This document shows, piece after piece, positions 5,418-38,420 of a DNA stretch of 39,386 nucleotides. The stretch comes from a virus. Taxonomy: Duplodnaviria > Heunggongvirae > Uroviricota > Caudoviricetes. The translations under genes and the position numbers were made by a program. The stretch is from the IMG/VR virus record IMGVR_UViG_642979322_000008, one strand, 5' to 3'. The notes beneath the pieces are model-generated. The model searched no databases, was not told the origin of the DNA, and worked only from the letters and a program-made list of their open reading frames with translations. How positions within the stretch are numbered: the stretch's first letter is position 1; each line of letters opens with the position of its first letter.

Positions 5418-5948
5418 ATGGCAAAACGCGTTACAAAATTAAAGGCCGCAGCAGAGGCGGCACCGCAGACCCGTGAAGAGGTCAGCCGCGATATCCGCAC
5501 CCTGGGCGATATTCAGCGAGAGGCGCTGCGCCTGGAAACAGCGATGAATGATGAAGTGGCAGAAATCACCGCCCGTTATACGCCGCAGATTGAAAACCTT
5601 AAAAAAGAAATCAAAGTGCTTTTTAAGGGGATTCAGGACTGGTGCAAAACCAACCGTGATGAGCTGACGAACGGCGGCAAAACCAAAACTGCCAATCTGA
5701 CCACCGGAACGGTGTCATGGCGACTGGGGAATCCATCATGCAGCGTCAGTCGTGATGTGGAAGGTGTGATTGAAATGCTGCGCCGTATGGGCCTTGAGCG
5801 TTTTATCCGCACGAAAGAGGAAGTGAACAAGGAAGCGGTCCTGGCGGAGCCGGATGCGGTGAAAGGGATTGCCGGTATTAAGGTGAATAAAGGCGCTGAA
5901 AGTTTTTATGTCGAGCCTTTTGAACAGGACGCCGGACTGAATAAATAA
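5418..5948 (+). CDS. gam: Gam-like host-nuclease inhibitor (Ku-like DNA-end binding protein)
   Basis: 176-aa ORF; motifs RLETxMND, ANRDELTNGGKxKTANL, SWR, FIRTKxEINKEA and PFEQ match Mu Gam as recalled. Confidence 0.88.
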   Translation: MAKRVTKLKAAAEAAPQTREEVSRDIRTLGDIQREALRLETAMNDEVAEITARYTPQIENLKKEIKVLFKGIQDWCKTNRDELTNGGKTKTANLTTGTVSWRLGNPSCSVSRDVEGVIEMLRRMGLERFIRTKEEVNKEAVLAEPDAVKGIAGIKVNKGAESFYVEPFEQDAGLNK

Positions 5949-6045: not shown

Positions 6046-6588
6046 ATGGCATATTTTTATTTCAAATTAGACCGTGTGCAGACAAATAAATATTTCACCA
6101 AATATCAACAGACTGTTTTACCGCTACGCAACAGTATTCTTCGGGCATTACTGAAAAATACAGGCGCTGCCGGATTGCGCTTAAAGCCGTTTGCCATGGA
6201 CGTAATCAGTGAGTTTTATTTTTCTGGTGCTCTGCCTGCGGGCTGGCGTAAGCGCGATGATGTGGCTTTTATCGGGGACGGACCGTGCTTTATTGCCAGA
6301 CCTGATGAGTCATGCCCTGAAGGTCCGGCGATTGCCGCAATGATTGAAACCGCTGAACGTGAGTTAAGAAAGCGTCCTGATTTCCTTGTCTGGCTCTGTG
6401 AAAAGCTGGGGGTAATGAGAATCCCCTCCATGTTTAACACGGACTCCTGGTGGACCCCGTCGCTCTCCCGTGATGCCCTGTGCGTGGTGTTTAAAGTAGG
6501 CGCTTATGGCAGGGAAATAAAAGGGTGTATTCCTGAAGAATGCCAGGAAATTAAACATTCTGAATATGTGGCGCTGACGGAGGAATAA
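6046..6588 (+). CDS. hypothetical early protein
   Basis: 180-aa ORF after a 97-bp AT-rich spacer; no recognised motif. Confidence 0.5.
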   Translation: MAYFYFKLDRVQTNKYFTKYQQTVLPLRNSILRALLKNTGAAGLRLKPFAMDVISEFYFSGALPAGWRKRDDVAFIGDGPCFIARPDESCPEGPAIAAMIETAERELRKRPDFLVWLCEKLGVMRIPSMFNTDSWWTPSLSRDALCVVFKVGAYGREIKGCIPEECQEIKHSEYVALTEE

Positions 6589-6591
6589 TTC

Positions 6592-7125
6592 ATGATTGAT
6601 GCAAAAGTGCTTGAAGGGGTTAAAAACTGGCTGAGTATTTACGGGCGTCTGACCTGCGGCATTCTGGCTGAAAAAATGAATATGCCGCCATCCTCGATGG
6701 TTTATTTTTTGCGTGATGCGGTCGATGCCGGGGTGCTGACGGAATGTAACGGTTTTTATGATATTCCGCGTCCCCGCCCGGTGCAGCCGGTTCGTCGCAA
6801 ATGCAGCCAGGAAGGTGCGGCTGATGATGTTCAGTGGTGCAGCTTCAGAAAATCCCTGCCGTGGATTGAGGGGCATGATATTCCGTCGATGGCGTGGGAA
6901 TTTGCTCAGGGCGTACTGACCTGCGAAACCGTTTATGTGGTGGTTGAAGTTGATGAGCAGGCCATGAAAGAAGGCGTGCCCCAGTTTGTGATGGCGTATA
7001 TCGACATTCGCCTGGGTGTCATTATCTGCGGTTTAAGCGGCTGGAATATCACCGAACATGTTCTGCGTTACCTGATTGTTGACCGGACGGCTGCACCTGC
7101 CGGGATATCTGCGGAGGTGGCGTAA
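6592..7125 (+). CDS. hypothetical protein with N-terminal winged-helix-like segment
   Basis: 177-aa ORF; LTCGILAEKMNMPPSSMVYFLRDAVDAGVL resembles an HTH. Confidence 0.5.
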   Translation: MIDAKVLEGVKNWLSIYGRLTCGILAEKMNMPPSSMVYFLRDAVDAGVLTECNGFYDIPRPRPVQPVRRKCSQEGAADDVQWCSFRKSLPWIEGHDIPSMAWEFAQGVLTCETVYVVVEVDEQAMKEGVPQFVMAYIDIRLGVIICGLSGWNITEHVLRYLIVDRTAAPAGISAEVA

Positions 7126-7640
7126 TGTTCTTTAAAACATCAAACCCTTCCGCGCTGGCCGCGTGGCAAAAATATCAGCAGGACTGCCAGAAAGTTAAGG
7201 ATGAGGCAAAACGCCTTGAGGCCGTGCTGAATGTTGCGTGCCGGTCGGTATTTGTATCCGGTATCAGTGGCTTTTGTTTTAAAGGGCTGCGCTTTATGGA
7301 TGACAAATATCCTTTTCATCGCGACTTATGGCGAAAACCGACTGCGTCGAATGGCTGGAGCTGCACACCGCGCACATCACGTATTCCCAAAGCCCTGCGC
7401 GTTGCCTCTGACGAACTTAACAGTCTGTGGCGTGAATATTCGCCCGTCACGTATGCCAGAACCGATGCACTGTTGTTCTGGCTGGGTATTGACTTCTCAG
7501 CAATATTGCATGGTCCCGTGAAGTGGTTCTGCGTTGACGATGTTATTTACCTTCAGTGCGAAGATGATTCCGCAAAACGGAAAATGACCGAAATTCTGTC
7601 TGATGAGTTTTATGCTGCCGAAAAGCGAGTCGGGGGGTGA
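7125..7640 (+). CDS. hypothetical early protein
   Basis: 171-aa ORF, start overlaps upstream stop. Confidence 0.45.
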   Translation: MFFKTSNPSALAAWQKYQQDCQKVKDEAKRLEAVLNVACRSVFVSGISGFCFKGLRFMDDKYPFHRDLWRKPTASNGWSCTPRTSRIPKALRVASDELNSLWREYSPVTYARTDALLFWLGIDFSAILHGPVKWFCVDDVIYLQCEDDSAKRKMTEILSDEFYAAEKRVGG

Positions 7641-7643
7641 TGC

Positions 7644-8195
7644 ATGATGAAATTACAACCCATGGGGAGAAAAGGCCGTGCACCCGCTCATGTTCGCGCA
7701 TGGACACCTGAAGAAGATGCGCTGCTGATTGCGCTTTATCCATCCACCCCGGTTAAGGATATTGCTGTCAGGATAAAAAGAAGTTTCTGGGGTGTACATA
7801 ACCGGATTGTTTTATTACGCGGTACTTACCCGGAGTTGCTCAAATGCAAACGCCTCAGATTTAAACCTGATGAAGATAAATTTATCCGAAAAAATGCCAG
7901 GACGATGACCGGTAAGCAAATAGGAGAATATCTGGGGCGAGACCGGGATTCTGTCCACAATCGGGCGCGATATATTGGCGTAAGCATGAAAAAATACGGA
8001 GAATTACTGCCTTTTACCCGCATACCTGACGATGATGTTCATCTTATTCGTGAATTACGGGATGCTGAATCACCACGGCGTCTTACCTTTAGGGAAATCG
8101 GCGAGAAATTTGAATTATCCGAGGGCACGGTGAGTTTTATTTATCACCGTCGTCGGACTGCCGAAGATGTTGTATTACGGGAGTTAACGACATGA
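7644..8195 (+). CDS. hypothetical protein with three tandem Myb/SANT-like HTH repeats
   Basis: Three internal repeats: WTPEEDALLIALY...VHNRI, FKPDEDKFIRKNA...VHNRARYIG, IPDDDVHLIRELR...TVSFIYHRRR. Confidence 0.55.
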   Translation: MMKLQPMGRKGRAPAHVRAWTPEEDALLIALYPSTPVKDIAVRIKRSFWGVHNRIVLLRGTYPELLKCKRLRFKPDEDKFIRKNARTMTGKQIGEYLGRDRDSVHNRARYIGVSMKKYGELLPFTRIPDDDVHLIRELRDAESPRRLTFREIGEKFELSEGTVSFIYHRRRTAEDVVLRELTT

Positions 8196-8377
8196 TAAGG
8201 AGACTTGTTTTTTTCGCAATTATCGTTCCTGTGTGGGGGGTTGGTTTTATATTTGCGGTTACAGGAAATCTGTCCATGATGCCGGATATATGGTTCTTTA
8301 TCAGGATGTCGCTCTTCCTGTTTATTATGAATCTTCTTATCGACATATATATCCGTATTACTGGAAAACATAAATGA
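8192..8377 (+). CDS. small hydrophobic membrane protein (two predicted TM helices)
   Basis: 61-aa ORF, highly hydrophobic; first gene of an AT-rich block. Confidence 0.45.
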   Translation: MIRRLVFFAIIVPVWGVGFIFAVTGNLSMMPDIWFFIRMSLFLFIMNLLIDIYIRITGKHK

Positions 8378-8938: not shown

Positions 8939-9224
8939 TTCTCTGTTGTTCTGGTGCTTATATATCACATCCTTTTTCGGCGCATTTGTTATTACCCGGT
9001 GGTTATGTCGAAAAATCATCTGCTTTTTTGATAAAAGACATCCGGTTGAACGGGCGGCTGATGCGCTCATTCAGCAGGCCATTGTGTTATATAGCGGTGA
9101 GTTTTTCTGCCGGATAACAACCAGAGATGGCTGGCACATAATGATTATTCCACCAACACACCATGCCCGGTGGGATGAGGCAGAAAAGGCTTTCCATGTC
9201 CGTAAAAAGGTAAATACGGTATGA
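8928..9224 (+). CDS. hypothetical protein with N-terminal TM helix
   Basis: 98-aa ORF, hydrophobic N-terminus LLFWCLYITSFFGAFVI. Confidence 0.4.
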   Translation: MDNSSLLFWCLYITSFFGAFVITRWLCRKIICFFDKRHPVERAADALIQQAIVLYSGEFFCRITTRDGWHIMIIPPTHHARWDEAEKAFHVRKKVNTV

Positions 9225-9730
9225 GAGGAAAACTGATATCCGCCATTCATGTGGCAAAGCGCGAGCTTGCCCTGGATGATGAGACTTATACATCCGCGCT
9301 GCTGGCAGCCACCGGCAAAACCAGCTGCCGGGATATGTCACCGGATGAGTTATCCCGCGTGCTGGATGTTTTCAAAAAACGCGGTTTTAAAGTGCGTCAG
9401 AACCCGGTTAACCGGGCCTTAAAACCGGGTACGGTGACCGCCAAAATTCGCGCCATCTGGAAGGTGATGCACCGGCAGGGCTTTATCACCGATGGTGCGG
9501 AAACCGCCCTTAACCGCTGGGTGAAATCGCAGACGGCCGCGCAGAACGGCGGCGAAGGTGTGGCAAACTGGCAGTGGCTGGAGCAACACCCCGCCCTGGC
9601 CTCAGATGTGCTGGAGCGTCTCAAGCGATGGCACCGCCGCAAAATGCTGGCCGCGATGGGAATGCCCGAACGCACGCTGATGGGGTATGACGCCGTTTGC
9701 AGGCAGTATGAAAAATCACTTCCCCGTTAA
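9221..9730 (+). CDS. gemA: GemA-like protein (Mu gp16 family)
   Basis: 169-aa ORF; N-terminal LISAIHVAKRELALDDETY...TGKTS matches recalled Mu GemA; position before Mor/C gene. Confidence 0.75.
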   Translation: MRGKLISAIHVAKRELALDDETYTSALLAATGKTSCRDMSPDELSRVLDVFKKRGFKVRQNPVNRALKPGTVTAKIRAIWKVMHRQGFITDGAETALNRWVKSQTAAQNGGEGVANWQWLEQHPALASDVLERLKRWHRRKMLAAMGMPERTLMGYDAVCRQYEKSLPR

Positions 9731-9734
9731 CCCC

Positions 9735-9765
9735 AAATCCCGCCACAACGCGGGATTTTTATTTT
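9735..9765 (+). terminator. rho-independent terminator after gemA
   Basis: Stem AAATCCCGC / GCGGGATTT with 6-nt loop followed by TTATTTT. Confidence 0.65.
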
Positions 9766-9799: not shown

Positions 9800-10225
9800 A
9801 TGGCAGAAACTCAGATGAGCATGTTTGGTGGTGACAGTGAGCAACTGCACGCCCTTATCGACCGCCTTGATGACATCCCTGATGATGTTCTCAAAAAGAA
9901 CTGGCCGCGGACCCTGTCAGAACTGGTTGAAGTCACCGGCGCAGAACTTCAGCGTCAGGGGATTGAGCCGGTACTGGCCGGTAAACTGGCACGCAAGGTG
10001 GCTGCGGCTCAGGCAGCCTATATGGGCGGACGGGGTTATTACCTGCCGGTCGGGGAATCTCTCTTTGCCGAGCTGCGAAACAATGAGATATTTTCGCGCT
10101 GGGACCGGGGCGAGAAAATTGAATCCCTTCGCCGCCATTACCGGATGTCAGAAACCCAGATTTATACCGTCATACGCGAACAGCGCCGTCTGCATCTGGC
10201 AAGAACGCAACCGCCACTTTTCTGA
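9800..10225 (+). CDS. Mor/C-family transcription activator (middle/late gene activator)
   Basis: 141-aa ORF with C-terminal HTH (ETQIYTVIREQRRL); architecture like Mu Mor and C; only one such gene found. Confidence 0.75.
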   Translation: MAETQMSMFGGDSEQLHALIDRLDDIPDDVLKKNWPRTLSELVEVTGAELQRQGIEPVLAGKLARKVAAAQAAYMGGRGYYLPVGESLFAELRNNEIFSRWDRGEKIESLRRHYRMSETQIYTVIREQRRLHLARTQPPLF

Positions 10226-33601: not shown

Positions 33602-34162
33602 ATGCTGATTGGCTATATACGCGTATCAACAAATGACCAGAACACAGGTTTACAAAGAAATGCGCTGGAATGTGCAGGATGTGAGCAGATTTTTGAAGAT
33701 AAAATGAGTGGTAAAACGACACAGCGGCCGGGACTGAAGCGGGCACTGAAGAAACTAAAACCCGGTGACACACTGATGGTCTGGAAACTGGACAGGCTGG
33801 GGCGCAGTATGCGCCACCTTGTTGCGCTGACAGATGAATTACAGCAACAGGGGATAAATTTTCGTAGTCTTACTGACAACATTGATACGTCAACCCCCAT
33901 GGGGCGCTTCTTTTTTCACATAATGGGTGCGCTGGCAGAAATGGAGCGTGAATTAATTGTCGAACGGACACGGGCTGGTCTTGCAGCTGCCCGTGAAAGG
34001 GGACGAACCGGCGGCAGACCCCGTCGTCTCACGCAGGAACAATACGAGCAGGTCGGGCGTTTACTGGCCGGGGGTGTCAGTCGAAGACAGGTGGCACTTA
34101 TTTTTGATATCGGCCTTTCAACCCTTTATCGTTATTATCCTGCGAGCGTTTCGGAAAAATAA
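33602..34162 (+). CDS. gin: serine-recombinase DNA invertase (Gin/Pin/Cin/Hin family)
   Basis: 186 aa; MLIGYIRVSTNDQ with catalytic Ser, RSLTDxIDTSxPMGRFFFHxMGALAEMERELIxERT and C-terminal HTH match Mu Gin almost throughout, as recalled. Confidence 0.93.
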   Translation: MLIGYIRVSTNDQNTGLQRNALECAGCEQIFEDKMSGKTTQRPGLKRALKKLKPGDTLMVWKLDRLGRSMRHLVALTDELQQQGINFRSLTDNIDTSTPMGRFFFHIMGALAEMERELIVERTRAGLAAARERGRTGGRPRRLTQEQYEQVGRLLAGGVSRRQVALIFDIGLSTLYRYYPASVSEK

Positions 34163-34261: not shown

Positions 34262-36301
34262 ATGACGTCCAAATGGGTTCAACTATCATCAATGCCCGGA
34301 AACTTTACTGTTAAAGTTTCCGGTGGTACAGCGGCATTTCTTGAGGCTCCCTTTCCTCCGGCCGAAACAAAAGGAGGAATGACATTTGCTGACTGTCTCA
34401 TCAGTTTTAATACACGGGATTGCCTGTGGGTAAGGCCAGTATCCGGTGATCCGAGTGTGGAAATTACCGGAGCGGGTATTGGTGCGGTCATTCCGTTAAG
34501 TGCTGATGTTGCCGGTACTGCTGAACCGTCAGACTGGGATAATGCTGAAACACATACCCGTCCGTCAGGAAATGAAACTGCTTCCAGCTCCCCTTCCTGG
34601 TATTACGTGGTGGTTCTTGCTGGTCAGTCAAACGGTATGGCTTACGGTGAAGGTCTGCCACTGCCGGAGACATATGACCGCCCCGAACCGCGTATTATGC
34701 AGTTAGCCCGTCGCAGTACAGTCACGCCGGGAGGTAAAGCCTGTCAGTATAACGACATCATTCTGGCCGACCACTGTCTGCATGATGTGCAGGATATGAG
34801 TGGAAAAAATCACCCGAAAGCGGATGTGGCTAAAGGGCAATATGGCACCGTGGGTCAGGGGCTTCACATTGCCAAAAAACTGCTGCCGTTTATTCCGGCA
34901 GATGCGGGGATTCTGCTGGTTCCCTGCTGCCGTGGTGGTTCTGCATTCACGGCGGGTGCTGACGGCACGTACAGTGACAGCACGGGTGCTTCAGAGGACT
35001 CAGCCCGCTGGGGTGTGGATAAGCCGCTGTATAAGGACTTAATCAGCCGGACAAAAGCGGCACTGGCGAAGAACCCGAAAAACCGCCTGCTTGCTGTGGT
35101 GTGGATGCAGGGCGAGTTTGATATTGATGCGAAGCCGACGGAGCATTCCGCGCTGTTTCTGGCGATGGTGGAAAAATTCCGCGCAGACCTGGCTGAACAG
35201 GCGGAACAGTGTACCGGTGGCAGTGCTGCTGGCGTTCCGTGGATTTGTGGCGATACCACGTATTTCTGGAAACAGAAAAATGAACCGGCATACCAGGCAA
35301 TCTATGGCGGCTACAAAAACAAAACAGATAAAAACATTCATTTCGTTCCATTAATGACAGATGAAAATGACGCGAATGTACCCACCAACAATCCGGCAGA
35401 AGACCCGGATATTGAATCCATTGGTTATTACGGCTCAACGTGGCGTAACAGTGCCGCCACCTGGACATCTGCGGACCGGGCCAGCCATTTCAGTTCATGG
35501 GCACGTCGTGGGATTATTTCCGACCGTCTGGCCACGGCAGTTCTGACTCATGCGGGGCGAACCACAGTAAAAGCCGATGTTCCATCTTCTGAAACTGAAG
35601 CACCAGTGCCGTCACCTTCAGAAACTGAAGCAGTAACCACAACACTGCTGTCTTATCGTGTCAGTGAGTCAGAAGGAAATCTGAAAGCCCAGGGCTGGGA
35701 GCCGGCTGGCGGTAAAGCTGAAATTATCAGTGATGCAGGAGGCACAGGTGGTAAGGCAATGAAACTGACCAAGGAAACAGGTAAATCATCCTGGTATCTG
35801 GATCATGATGCCGGTACTGGTGCTGAACTGCTGAAAAATGGTGGTTTAATCAGTTGTCGTTTTAAAGTACCTGGCGACCTGGTGGCAAACCAGTATGTCA
35901 TGGGGCTTTACTGGCCGGTTTCCTCTCTGCCGCAGGGTGTCACCCTGACAGGGGATGCAGGGAATAATCTGCTGGCATCGTTCTACATCCAGACAGACGC
36001 AAAAGACCTGAATGTGATGTACCACAATGCAAAAGTGGCAACAAATAACCAGAAACTGGGAACCTTTGGTGCATTTGATAATGAATGGCATACGCTGGCC
36101 TTCCGTTTTGCAGGAAATAACAGCCTTCAGGTTATTCCGGTTATTGATGGTCAGGATGGTGCCGCGTTTACCCTGACGCAGTCACCAGTAGGAACTTTCC
36201 CGGTGGACAAACTCCGCGTAACGGATATCACAAAAAATGCAACTTACCCGGTGCTGATTGACAGCATTGTGGTGGAAGTGAAAAAAGCGGTAACAGAATA
36301 A
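34262..36301 (+). CDS. SGNH/SASA-family carbohydrate O-acetylesterase-like protein (prophage NanS-p-like) with additional N- and C-terminal domains
   Basis: 679 aa; GQSN motif (VVVLAGQSNGMAYGEG) typical of sialate O-acetylesterase-type SGNH hydrolases; Ser/Thr/Pro/Glu linker (SETEAPVPSPSETEA) before a C-terminal beta-rich domain. Confidence 0.55.
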   Translation: MTSKWVQLSSMPGNFTVKVSGGTAAFLEAPFPPAETKGGMTFADCLISFNTRDCLWVRPVSGDPSVEITGAGIGAVIPLSADVAGTAEPSDWDNAETHTRPSGNETASSSPSWYYVVVLAGQSNGMAYGEGLPLPETYDRPEPRIMQLARRSTVTPGGKACQYNDIILADHCLHDVQDMSGKNHPKADVAKGQYGTVGQGLHIAKKLLPFIPADAGILLVPCCRGGSAFTAGADGTYSDSTGASEDSARWGVDKPLYKDLISRTKAALAKNPKNRLLAVVWMQGEFDIDAKPTEHSALFLAMVEKFRADLAEQAEQCTGGSAAGVPWICGDTTYFWKQKNEPAYQAIYGGYKNKTDKNIHFVPLMTDENDANVPTNNPAEDPDIESIGYYGSTWRNSAATWTSADRASHFSSWARRGIISDRLATAVLTHAGRTTVKADVPSSETEAPVPSPSETEAVTTTLLSYRVSESEGNLKAQGWEPAGGKAEIISDAGGTGGKAMKLTKETGKSSWYLDHDAGTGAELLKNGGLISCRFKVPGDLVANQYVMGLYWPVSSLPQGVTLTGDAGNNLLASFYIQTDAKDLNVMYHNAKVATNNQKLGTFGAFDNEWHTLAFRFAGNNSLQVIPVIDGQDGAAFTLTQSPVGTFPVDKLRVTDITKNATYPVLIDSIVVEVKKAVTE

Positions 36302-36307
36302 AAAAAT

Positions 36308-36334
36308 CCCGCCGGTCATGATATGGCTGGCGGG
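36308..36334 (-). terminator. GC-rich hairpin after the esterase gene with U-tract on the minus-strand side
   Basis: Stem CCCGCCGG / CTGGCGGG; A7 precedes it on the plus strand, which gives T7 after it on the minus strand. Confidence 0.35.
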
Positions 36335-36447
36335 AGCTACCTAACCCATAAAGGAAAATAAAAATACTCCCGAAGGAGTGGTTATCAGTCGCTTCGATGT
36401 TTTTACCCGATAACGAATTATGTAGTCAATATCAAAGGTAAGGTTAT

Positions 36448-36630
36448 ATGACATTCGTTCATACAATGCTGCTTTATTTCTGCGCTGTGGTCAGTGCGTT
36501 ATATCTGGTGAGCGGTGGTTATAAGGTCATCAGAAATTATATTCGCCGTAAAATTGATGATGCGGCAGCTGAAAAACTCAGTAAAACAGCACAGGCACCG
36601 TCATCCCCAAACGACCCGACCCCGCTCTGA
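36448..36630 (+). CDS. small membrane protein (one TM helix)
   Basis: 60-aa ORF, RBS AAGGTAAGG; hydrophobic N-terminus MLLYFCAVVSALYLVSGG. Confidence 0.4.
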   Translation: MTFVHTMLLYFCAVVSALYLVSGGYKVIRNYIRRKIDDAAAEKLSKTAQAPSSPNDPTPL

Positions 36631-36665
36631 TAACGGGGCAATATACCTGCAAAAGGAGAATATTC

Positions 36666-36911
36666 ATGCCAGAGATTAAAGGCACGGTTACTGAAGAGCT
36701 TGTCAAACAGGCACTTTATTCTGAAGAAGTGAACCGCGTGCTGAAGGCGCAGGTTCGCAAGGATTTTGAGGCACAAATCGACGCATATGTTGATGAAGTG
36801 CTGGCCCGAATGGTTGGCCGTTCTCCGGCTGAAAACAGCACGGAAAATGATCCTCAACCCGTAGAGCAACCAGAGCCGGTTCAGCCCGGAACTGACGGTA
36901 CTATGATGTAA
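36666..36911 (+). CDS. hypothetical acidic small protein
   Basis: 81-aa ORF, RBS AAAGGAG 7 nt upstream of ATG. Confidence 0.45.
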   Translation: MPEIKGTVTEELVKQALYSEEVNRVLKAQVRKDFEAQIDAYVDEVLARMVGRSPAENSTENDPQPVEQPEPVQPGTDGTMM

Positions 36912-36920
36912 CAATACCGA

Positions 36921-36940
36921 CCGGCAGGTTTCCCTGCCGG
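36921..36940 (+). terminator. hairpin terminator candidate after small gene
   Basis: Stem CCGGCAGG / CCTGCCGG, loop TTTC, followed by GTGAGTTTGTT. Confidence 0.45.
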
Positions 36941-37229
36941 GTGAGTTTGTTAATGCACGTTTTGTGTATTTTCCCTCCTGGGAGAACAGGCAGGACATAT
37001 CAGCATCCTGAAACAGGAAGCATTTTTGGGTTTGTATGTCTTGCCATTTTGAGATCGAGAACGGCGATAGATGAGCTGTAAGGGAGTCTTACAGGCAGGG
37101 CAAACAGGCTCTTTCATCCATGATAAAGATCTCCTTTTTATGCATCTCTGCTTTACAGGAGACCGGGGAATATCATAGGATACGCCACGAGCTCGAAGTA
37201 AAGCATTGATGCAAGTTTTTACAGATTGA

Positions 37230-37262
37230 CCCAGCATAGTTCCAGCTATGCTGGGTTTCACT
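37230..37262 (+). terminator. rho-independent terminator
   Basis: Perfect 10-bp stem CCCAGCATAG / CTATGCTGGG with loop TTCCAG followed by TTTCACTTTT. Confidence 0.6.
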
Positions 37263-37299
37263 TTTATGTAGTATCCTGTTGATTTGAAACATACTACAT

Positions 37300-37528
37300 A
37301 TACGCGTGATCCTACCTTCACTGTATAAAAAGTCAATAAAATGATCATTTTATGATCGTTTTCACCACCTAACTCTTCGTTTTCTTTAAGTAAATAATCA
37401 CCTCCCTGAATCATTGTTGATGACTTTTCAATCTATTTGTTGTATCAATTAAACAAATCGAATCGATCGTTTTTGTCGATCGATTGCATGAGAAAGGCAT
37501 CAACAACAAAGCAGGAGGTTATGCGGTC
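37300..37528. promoter_or_regulatory. com-mom upstream control region with GATC cluster
   Basis: GATC at about 37309, 37343, 37354, 37459 and 37473; palindrome CGATCG-N-CGATCG; RBS AGGAGG before com ATG. Confidence 0.5.
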
Positions 37529-37729
37529 ATGTATCGAAACATACGGTGCCGACACTGCAATAAGCTACTGGCACGGGCCAGTTTCAGTTATCTGGAAGTA
37601 AAATGTCCGCGCTGTAAAACCCTCAATCAAATCACATCTCCGAGCGCCACAGAGCACCCCACATACACAAGGAAATCCTGTCGTGGGGAACAGAAAGCAA
37701 GTCACATCCCGAATCATCAGCACGCCTGA
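37529..37729 (+). CDS. com: Com zinc-finger translational activator of mom
   Basis: [17 protein letters not shown]...EVKCPRCK matches Mu Com Cys4 pattern (IRCKNCNKLL...EIRCPRCK) as recalled; overlaps the mom start. Confidence 0.8.
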
Positions 37730-38420
37730 ACTTATTCGCTATAACGACAATATCGTTGGTTATGGCTCCCGTGAGTTGCGGGTTGAGACAATAAGTTGCT
37801 GGCTGGCCAGACTGGTCATCGTCAATAAACATTACAGCCACCGTTTCGTAAATAACTCCTACCTTCATCTGGGCATATTTTCAGAACGGGAACTTGTTGG
37901 CGTAATGCAATGGGGTTACGCCCTTAACCCAAACAGTGGTGCACGCGTCGTAACGGGTACGCAGAACCGAGAATATATGGAGCTTAACCGGCTATGGCTG
38001 CATGACTGTATGCCGAGAAACTCCGAATCAAGGGCAATCAGTTACGCGCTCAAGCTAATCAGGCAGCTTTATCCGCAGGTACAGTGGGTTCAGTCGTTTG
38101 CAGATGAGCGTTGTGGCTGTCTTGGTGTCGTGTATCAGGCAAGCAATTTTGATTATGTAGGCAGCCATGAATCAATATTCTATGAACTTGATGGCGAGTG
38201 GTATCACGAGATTTGCAGGAATGCCATTAAACGAGGCGGACAACGAGGTGAACATCTGAGGGCTAATATTGACAGAGCCAGTGTTCATAAGTTCCGACAG
38301 TTTCGTTACATCCGGTTTCTGAACAAGAGGGCCAGAAAACGCCTCAACACAAAGCTATTCAAAGTCCAGCCTTACCCAAAACCACAAACAGTTAAAACTG
38401 GTTTGAAAGAGAGTGAATGA
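37683..38420 (+). CDS. mom: Mom DNA-modification enzyme (adenine N6-carbamoylmethylation)
   Basis: 245-aa ORF directly after and overlapping com, last gene before the prophage right end; start codon uncertain. Confidence 0.8.

Follow-up and report, generated by a model that had tools for sequence, protein, structure and literature searches.

The 39,386-nt stretch of viral DNA analysed here (the window, below) is Sp18, a Mu-like prophage that E. coli O157:H7 Sakai carries in sorM, and we focused on one gene in its early region, ECs_4956. The open reading frame (ORF) list places this gene at 7644-8195 on the + strand, with an ATG start and 183 amino acids (aa) plus stop, exactly as a first-pass annotation of the DNA had delimited it, and the product is 100% identical to Sp18 ECs_4956, there annotated as a hypothetical protein. 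We found that ECs_4956 belongs to the D5/gp9 family of phage proteins, and that it has a modular anatomy of three helix-turn-helix (HTH) units: two bona fide tandem repeats (R1 and R2) followed by a third, divergent HTH module (R3). The whole protein is basic (isoelectric point (pI) 10.1), and the gene is laid out as follows:

7632..7637, + strand: putative ribosome-binding site, the G-run GGGGGG, 6-11 nt before the ATG; the run is seen in the sequence, its function presumed
7644..8195, + strand: ECs_4956, coding sequence of a D5/gp9-family (PHROG 323) triple-HTH protein; PHROG 323 expectation value (E) 1e-58, ratio of non-synonymous to synonymous substitution rates (dN/dS) 0.13-0.26
7644..7694, + strand: N-terminal arm, aa 1-17 (MMKLQPMGRKGRAPAHV), Pro/Gly-rich, conserved, predicted to be disordered (predicted local distance difference test score (pLDDT) 41-63)
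7695..7823, + strand: module R1, aa 18-60, Myb/SANT/GcrA-like three-helix HTH with helices at 22-31, 37-43 and 48-59; pI 10.2
7824..7859, + strand: linker 1, aa 61-72, basic and variable (coil in the AlphaFold2 model, entropy 1.71)
7860..7976, + strand: module R2, aa 73-111, Myb/SANT-like HTH with helices at 75-84, 90-97 and 101-110; pI 10.0
7977..8021, + strand: linker 2, aa 112-126, with a conserved K117-x-G119 and T125 motif (KYGELLPFTR) of invariant or near-invariant columns
8022..8153, + strand: module R3, aa 127-170, sigma-70-region-4/LuxR-like HTH with helices at 129-140, 149-156 and 160-169; acidic, pI 5.6
8154..8192, + strand: C-terminal helix, aa 171-183 (RTAEDVVLRELTT), conserved; in predicted models it completes the C-terminal module as a fourth helix

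The first-pass annotation had described the protein as three repeats of ~45 aa. Three motif starts (W20-TPEED, F73-KPDED and I127-PDDD) and three basic helix ends (GVHNRIVLLR, SVHNRARYIG and FIYHRRR) are indeed present, spaced by 53 and 54 aa, with a folded unit of ~40-45 aa plus linkers of ~10-15 aa. Comparing the modules as single sequences, R1 and R2 gave a Smith-Waterman z-score of 4.0 (matched by 9 of 2000 shuffles) and R2 and R3 a z-score of 2.5, while R1 and R3 were not significantly similar against shuffles. Profiles drawn from a family alignment of 26 members separated the pairs further: R1 and R2 aligned over 39 columns with an hhalign probability of 98% (P 1e-13), the match of R2 to R3 was confined to the core of helix 2, turn and helix 3 (P 1.3e-4, probability 54%), and that of R1 to R3 was marginal (P 6e-3, probability 6%). 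It is this difference in statistical support between module pairs that leads us to describe two clear repeats and a divergent third module; what stands of the earlier description is the tandem R1-R2 pair and the three sets of motif starts and ends, but not three equivalent units, and the period is 53-54 aa.

An AlphaFold2 model computed from the same alignment is all-helical (pLDDT 82.3, predicted template modelling score (pTM) 0.53): it folds into three 3-helix units, ends in a helix at 173-181 and leaves the N-terminus disordered. Judged from sequence and model, the claim of the first-pass annotation that this is a multi-HTH protein, very probably binding nucleic acid, is supported. Both termini are conserved. 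In the arm, G11 and H16 are invariant and M2, L4, P6 and P14 are conserved in at least 90% of members (mean entropy 0.89), and the arm motif is seen again in distant orthologues of ~180 aa; at the C-terminal end, R170 and T172 are invariant and A173 and E180 reach at least 90% (segment entropy 0.89, pI 4.7). The linkers are basic, like R1 and R2 (pI ~10), and R3 and the C-terminus are acidic. A candidate zinc site at C13/H16/C118 was rejected, as ECs_4956 itself has A13 and Y118.

As to the type of these modules, the earlier label was Myb/SANT-like, and here too part of the claim holds. Three-helix HTH folds do occur in tandem, ~52 aa apart, and in a profile search of the PDB the best sequence matches among solved structures were the R2R3 pair of c-Myb (1h88_C, E 4e-6), in one alignment running across R1 and R2 in register, and the tandem-HTH protein Cbp1 (2lvs, E 1.4e-4). 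R1 and R2 further share with Myb R2R3/SANT domains (PF00249) the WT(P/K)EED start of helix 1 and a period of ~52-54 aa. Among the 26 family members, 19 matched Myb_DNA-binding at E up to 0.01 (best 6e-9) and 19 matched Sigma70_r4, and precomputed Pfam assignments list Myb for several homologues, P0008 and P0019 included. In ECs_4956 itself, Myb_DNA-binding (PF00249) scored 16.6 bits (cut-off 24.4) over residues 19-31 only, Sigma70_r4 scored 23.5 bits (cut-off 24.1) over residues 145-169, and an HTH_AsnC-type model scored 20.1 bits (cut-off 27) over residues 131-163.

Unlike Myb, however, ECs_4956 lacks the tryptophan triad. An aromatic residue is kept at the first position alone (W20, F73), W20 is the sole invariant Trp, and opposite the second and third Trp of c-Myb the alignment has gaps or residues that are aliphatic or small. 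Helices 1 and 2 are also joined by a shorter loop than in Myb, and the third module is of a different type from the first two, with sigma region 4 and LuxR-type folds ranking above Myb when R3 is searched alone. R3 and the C-terminal helix together form a unit of four helices, which by fold best matches SigA region 4, extracytoplasmic function (ECF) sigma factors and sigma-28; it differs from sigma factors in being acidic, in having no region 2 or 3 beside it and in its poorly conserved helix 3. We conclude that R1 and R2 are Myb/SANT/GcrA-like and that R3 is best described as sigma-region-4-like. Two other known systems also differ, as the N-terminal domain of Caulobacter GcrA (PDB 5yiu) has one module rather than three, and Sulfolobus Cbp1, which binds clustered regularly interspaced short palindromic repeats (CRISPR), is an archaeal chromosomal protein with other module sequences and no sigma-region-4-like last module.

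Three other family assignments do not hold. The NCBI name "AsnC family protein" is a misnomer, because it rests on the weak HTH match alone: that match is C-terminal, AsnC_trans_reg is not matched, the model is all-helical, and there is no AsnC ligand-binding (RAM) domain. Membership in the sigma-70 family fails in that TIGR02937 scores 18.6 against a cut-off of 42.9 over residues 146-169 only, which leaves a region-4-like module and no more. GcrA (PF07750) has no significant match in ECs_4956, which also lacks the C-terminal sigma-70-binding region.

The family to which ECs_4956 does belong is already catalogued. Residues 2-182 match positions 80-256 of the 319-position profile of PHROG 323 ("transcriptional regulator, D5-like", filed under transcription regulation) with an E of 1.1e-58, and the same profile recovers T5 D5 (1.2e-71), Mu gp9/E8 (5.2e-29) and a homologue from the P2-like Citrobacter phage Shae_phiSM (3e-33). 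Aligned profile to profile, our family and T5 D5 share 144 collinear columns (hhalign probability 96.6%, E 5e-10) in which residues 18-171 of ECs_4956, that is R1 to R3, correspond to residues 72-232 of D5; for Mu gp9 the match covers R2 and R3 (98%, E 3e-13), with R2 the counterpart of the first gp9 module (gp9 aligns to aa 66-166). Some homologues are named "SANT/Myb domain-containing protein" by NCBI, and the Mu RefSeq record itself calls gp9 "transcriptional regulator, D5-like".

T5 D5 provides the functional precedent. It is a DNA-binding protein that T5 needs for DNA replication and late transcription, and it has a part in the shut-off of earlier genes (T5 RefSeq note, literature); UniProt (D5_BPT5, T5.118) names it "putative transcription factor D5". 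It is a 26-kDa monomer that is toxic when expressed alone, and its HTH binds the stem-loop of the multicopy single-stranded DNA (msDNA) of the type IX retron Kva2, triggering defence (bioRxiv 10.64898/2026.07.11.737809). Like ECs_4956, D5 is the product of an early gene, has modules starting with WTPE... and FTPDE... and ends in a sigma-region-4-like module; its DNA binding through the HTH is documented. Pfam reflects this layout in D5, with a weak Myb match over residues 71-100 and Sigma70_r4_2, which exceeds its threshold, over 204-230. It differs in its length (255 aa), in an extra ~70 aa at the N-terminus and an Ala/Lys-rich tail, in the absence of the N-terminal arm and KxG...T linker motif that are conserved in the enterobacterial prophage subfamily, and in its setting, among the replication genes of a virulent phage; identity in the profile alignment is ~27%.

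Mu gp9 (E8, GP9_BPMU, uncharacterised) is, like ECs_4956, a product of the early operon of a transposable phage, but has 99 aa and two modules, without R1, the N-terminal arm or the C-terminal helix, and lies upstream of gam rather than downstream of the gp12 homologue. In a blastp comparison with all Mu early proteins it was the sole match (32% identity, E 1e-8). It has no assigned function, unlike the Mu early genes c, ner, A, B, kil, gam, gemA and mor that we considered, and ECs_4956 is thus not a Mu core early protein of known function. No second copy of ECs_4956 or gp9 paralogue was found in the window, and no separate gp9 homologue occurs there, at gp9's position or elsewhere, or in any Sp18-like locus; we infer that gp9 and ECs_4956 are mutually exclusive and would be alternative occupants of one role.

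The surroundings of ECs_4956 are those of a Mu-type early region. Upstream, the order in Sp18 is repressor, ner-like gene, MuA, MuB, small ORFs and Gam (5418-5948), and downstream come four small ORFs, GemA (9221-9730), a terminator-like hairpin (9735-9758), a Mor/C-type activator (9800-10225) and a lysozyme gene. Between Gam and ECs_4956 lie three genes:

6046-6588: unknown gene, between Gam and the gp11 homologue
6592-7125: Mu gp11 homologue, 67% identity to Mu gp11, Pfam Gp11_C
7125-7640: Mu gp12 homologue, 53% identity to Mu gp12

ECs_4956 is on the same strand as the gp12 homologue and packed against it, starting 4 nt after its TGA stop (7638-7640), and this position of the upstream stop makes translational coupling of ECs_4956 likely. 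No promoter-like site precedes the gene, promoter and terminator signals around it do not exceed the expectation from shuffled sequence, and a terminator-like hairpin appears only after gemA. Given the 4-nt gap to the gp12 homologue and the lack of a promoter-like site before the gene, ECs_4956 is probably transcribed, following the Mu paradigm, within the early operon and without a promoter of its own.

Early operons also house the homologues in other Enterobacterales prophages. Marker-gene mapping of 65 IMG/VR loci placed ECs_4956 homologues in two contexts, both early operons: a Mu-like one (MuA, MuB, ..., Gam, gp11 homologue, gp12 homologue, target, ..., GemA), which holds down to 37-54% identity of the target, and a P2-like one (int, C, cox, ..., target, ..., gpA), which agrees with Shae_phiSM. 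The gp11 and gp12 homologues always precede the ECs_4956 homologue in Mu-like loci, even at 48-66% identity, and are not present in the P2-like loci; they correspond to PHROGs 1949 and 2314, with Gp11_C as the sole Pfam match, and their Mu counterparts lie at 6424-7484 of the Mu locus (L068). The full-length relatives retrieved by a word-indexed search were confined to E. coli, Salmonella and Citrobacter; an exhaustive profile search added ~20 clusters of proteins of ~180 aa, the named ones from Salmonella, Klebsiella/Raoultella and Hafniaceae (going by the organism names given for cluster members), and a scan of representative genomes gave a single weak, unrelated locus, in a Verrucomicrobiae metagenome-assembled genome.

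Among complete E. coli genomes, the ECs_4956 gene was found at 270 places in 229 genomes, next to 274 for the gp12 homologue and 277 for the MuB gene, which makes it nearly a core gene of the Sp18-type lineage (~97% of copies). The first-pass annotation had considered such a protein unusual for Mu early regions, a view that the two-module homologue in Mu itself (gp9/E8) and this near-universal retention do not bear out.

The gene appears to be both maintained and locally fast-evolving. Its dN/dS of 0.13-0.26, obtained against 11 alleles of 72-97% identity, marks it as a real gene under purifying selection. In each module variability peaks in the third helix (mean column entropy 1.67, 1.84 and 2.03 in R1, R2 and R3), with helix 3 of R3 the most variable segment of the whole protein, while helices 1 and 2 are conserved, in R3 to near invariance (entropy 0.49 and 0.23; DxDVxLIRxLRD and LTFREIGEKF). 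At the codon level, dN/dS is 0.4-0.8 in the third helices versus 0.05-0.13 in helices 1 and 2, a 5-10 times faster rate, and a Fisher test on non-synonymous versus synonymous counts gave p values of 0.011 and 0.075 for two allele pairs. Divergent alleles are also common, with 24 records of the ECs_4956 gene at 60-80% DNA identity and none of MuB below 80%.

Such helices could follow different operators, as would be expected if ECs_4956 were a classical sequence-specific transcription factor whose three HTHs read one composite operator in a phage or host promoter, to repress or activate it. The tandem HTHs with basic R1, R2 and linkers, the closeness to the structures of c-Myb R2R3 and the three-HTH protein Cbp1, and the PHROG listing under transcription regulation all fit this possibility. 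The alleles speak against it: some are only 73% identical, changed mostly in the recognition helices, between flanking genes that are 94-100% identical, and a fixed phage operator would need to co-vary with the allele; none was seen to do so, though no search aimed at a co-varying site was made. Mu-like, P2-like and T5 genomes moreover have no regulatory DNA in common, and no intergenic partner site adjoins ECs_4956 in Sp18. Weighing these points, we regard a classical operator-reading factor, along the lines of the sequence-specific binder suggested by the first-pass annotation, as unlikely.

The same third helices could instead record an arms race, with ECs_4956 acting at the interface with phage defence, either by inhibiting nucleic-acid-based host immunity or by being sensed by a defence system as Kva2 senses T5 D5. 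That a family member triggers this retron through binding of its HTH to an msDNA stem-loop, that the third helices outpace the scaffold helices, that divergent alleles are far commoner than in MuB (24 vs 0 below 80%) and that in two phage lineages the gene sits among the accessory genes of early operons are all compatible with this. However, to be sensed does not amount to a function, the third helices still show a dN/dS below 1, which is compatible with simple relaxation, and retention in ~97% of Sp18-type copies suggests a housekeeping role for the phage. Nor did the anti-defence role raised by the first-pass annotation gain any supporting sign, since PADLOC-DB models matched neither ECs_4956 nor four neighbouring genes, and no known anti-defence family was matched; we consider this explanation improbable. 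A broader version, rather improbable in our view, would make D5/gp9-type proteins, instead of ordinary regulators, a mobile early-gene module of Mu-, P2- and T5-like phages at the phage-host conflict interface, in which the third helices would be the contested surface, sensed by or neutralising nucleic-acid-based defence, and a constant host target such as RNA polymerase would be bound by the invariant, sigma-region-4-like face of R3.

A variant of that version would add a functional link to the Dam methyltransferase that precedes the homologue in P2-like prophages, and this genomic neighbourhood also raises the separate possibility of a methylation-coupled DNA-binding factor, acting as a GcrA-like reader of methylated DNA or as controller or partner of a phage methyltransferase. 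In 17 of the 18 P2-like loci (L045-L065) the homologue lies just downstream (~0.5-1.5 kb) of a Dam-like D12 N6-adenine methyltransferase (Pfam E 8e-56), and in 7 of 18 a C5-cytosine methyltransferase follows just after it; multi-repeat relatives match Pfam GcrA above threshold, and the fold resembles the GcrA DNA-binding domain. Yet no methyltransferase adjoins the homologue in any Mu-like locus, mom, the only DNA-modification gene of Sp18, is 30 kb away, ECs_4956 itself has no PF07750 match, and the P2-like loci are interrelated, so that they may have inherited this gene order from one another's ancestor, at a known hot spot for accessory genes. A further lead, to which we give no weight, is an R1-R2-like pair inside the C5-methyltransferase gene of a mycobacteriophage; sibling phages have an HNH endonuclease annotated there. 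We take a methylation-coupled role to be quite improbable.

That annotation also bears on a fourth explanation, in which ECs_4956 would be what is left of a homing endonuclease after loss of the nuclease domain: a DNA-binding part, domesticated or decaying, with little function of its own. R1 has weak PHROG matches to HNH-endonuclease families (phrog_1891 for ECs_4956, phrog_8446 for gp9), and tblastn matches fall under HNH endonuclease genes of cluster-J mycobacteriophages. Purifying selection, near-universal retention in the Sp18 lineage and conservation over the full length, with R3 and the family-specific N-terminal arm included, in Escherichia, Salmonella, Citrobacter, Klebsiella and Hafnia argue against a remnant, which we find scarcely credible.

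With moderate confidence, we therefore favour the explanation that ECs_4956 is an early-operon accessory protein of the T5-D5/Mu-gp9 family that binds duplex DNA and modulates phage transcription or replication. The parts of this explanation differ in strength: family membership and modular anatomy are established by the results above, DNA binding is strongly suggested, and the partner and the biological effect are weakly suggested. In the mechanism we propose, R1 and R2 would dock their third helices in successive major grooves, in the manner of Myb R2R3, with the allele-specific third helices of R1 and R2 setting the sequence preference, and the near-invariant face of helices 1 and 2 of R3, together with the N-terminal arm, would contact a constant partner, for which RNA polymerase, another copy of ECs_4956 or a replication or transposition protein are candidates. 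By analogy with T5 D5, the protein would then modulate the timing of transcription and/or replication after induction, possibly standing in for gp9 in Sp18-type phages.

Several points weigh against this explanation as well. The function is transferred wholly from T5 D5, a protein ~27% identical from a virulent phage of another life style. The occurrence of the family in Mu-like, P2-like and T5 backbones argues against a phage-specific DNA site, and the real target may be DNA of the phage, DNA of the host or some other nucleic acid. Because R3 is acidic and has the least conserved recognition helix, it may lack DNA binding altogether, and the partner proposed for it is a guess. In addition, the Pfam matches of ECs_4956 all lie below gathering thresholds, and the geometry between domains in the AlphaFold2 model is unreliable at a pTM of 0.53.

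These results allow the misleading name "AsnC family protein" to be corrected to "D5/gp9-like multi-HTH DNA-binding protein", and join three early proteins that had long lacked a clear assignment or been little understood, Mu gp9/E8, the 183-aa protein of Sp18/SfMu-type phages and T5 D5, in one modular family, of which ECs_4956 represents a three-module prophage subfamily, a picture that overall will not surprise a specialist. Should the transfer from D5 hold, Mu-like and P2-like temperate phages would possess a factor of the D5 type that acts either in the early-to-late switch or in replication, and would offer genetics far easier than in T5. The features most worth pursuing are the fast recognition helices set against an invariant, sigma-region-4-like third module, which give a handle on specificity, and the precedent of D5 and the retron. 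A literature search returned no paper mentioning ECs4956, and nothing relevant on Mu gp9 and the semi-essential region or on Myb/SANT domains in prophages.

The gene immediately downstream of ECs_4956 and overlapping its stop codon is ECs_5772 (8192-8377), a hydrophobic ORF of 61 aa that is likely a small membrane protein. It is found in only some Sp18-like alleles, so that the stretch just downstream of ECs_4956 is mosaic. Further along, the activator at 9800-10225, preceded by the strong terminator-like hairpin and directly followed by the lysozyme gene, is the sole member of the Mor/C family in the whole window, with 39% identity to Mu C and 27% to Mor; Sp18-type phages might use a two-tier transcription cascade instead of the three-tier one of Mu.

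At the far end of the prophage, a cargo of ~3.3 kb (34262-37414) lies between a Gin-like invertase and Mom, bounded by 33602-34162 and 37683-38420. Its first ORF (34262-36301, + strand) encodes 679 aa with a SASA carbohydrate/sialate-esterase domain and DUF6645, and two unknown ORFs follow on the minus strand (36537-37414). Since Mu is not known to carry more than com between gin and mom, the cargo looks like an accessory insertion (moron).

Outside Sp18, the Mycobacterium phage Bombitas carries the R1-R2-like double HTH mentioned above in gp109 (2001-2291 of locus L071), where it follows the catalytic, N-terminal half of a C5-cytosine methyltransferase; sibling cluster-J mycobacteriophages have this stretch annotated as a separate HNH endonuclease. 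The double HTH might serve in target recognition or stem from the insertion of a homing endonuclease. Finally, thousands of long metagenomic proteins recovered by the exhaustive profile search carry 3-10 tandem units of the R1/R2 type (WT.EED...IA..LGRS..SV..RA..LGL), among them P0033, P0035 (fused to a superfamily 2 (SF2) helicase), P0038, P0043, P0079 and P0090 (with C-terminal Cys clusters); they form a large, essentially undescribed prokaryotic family of Myb/GcrA-like repeats.

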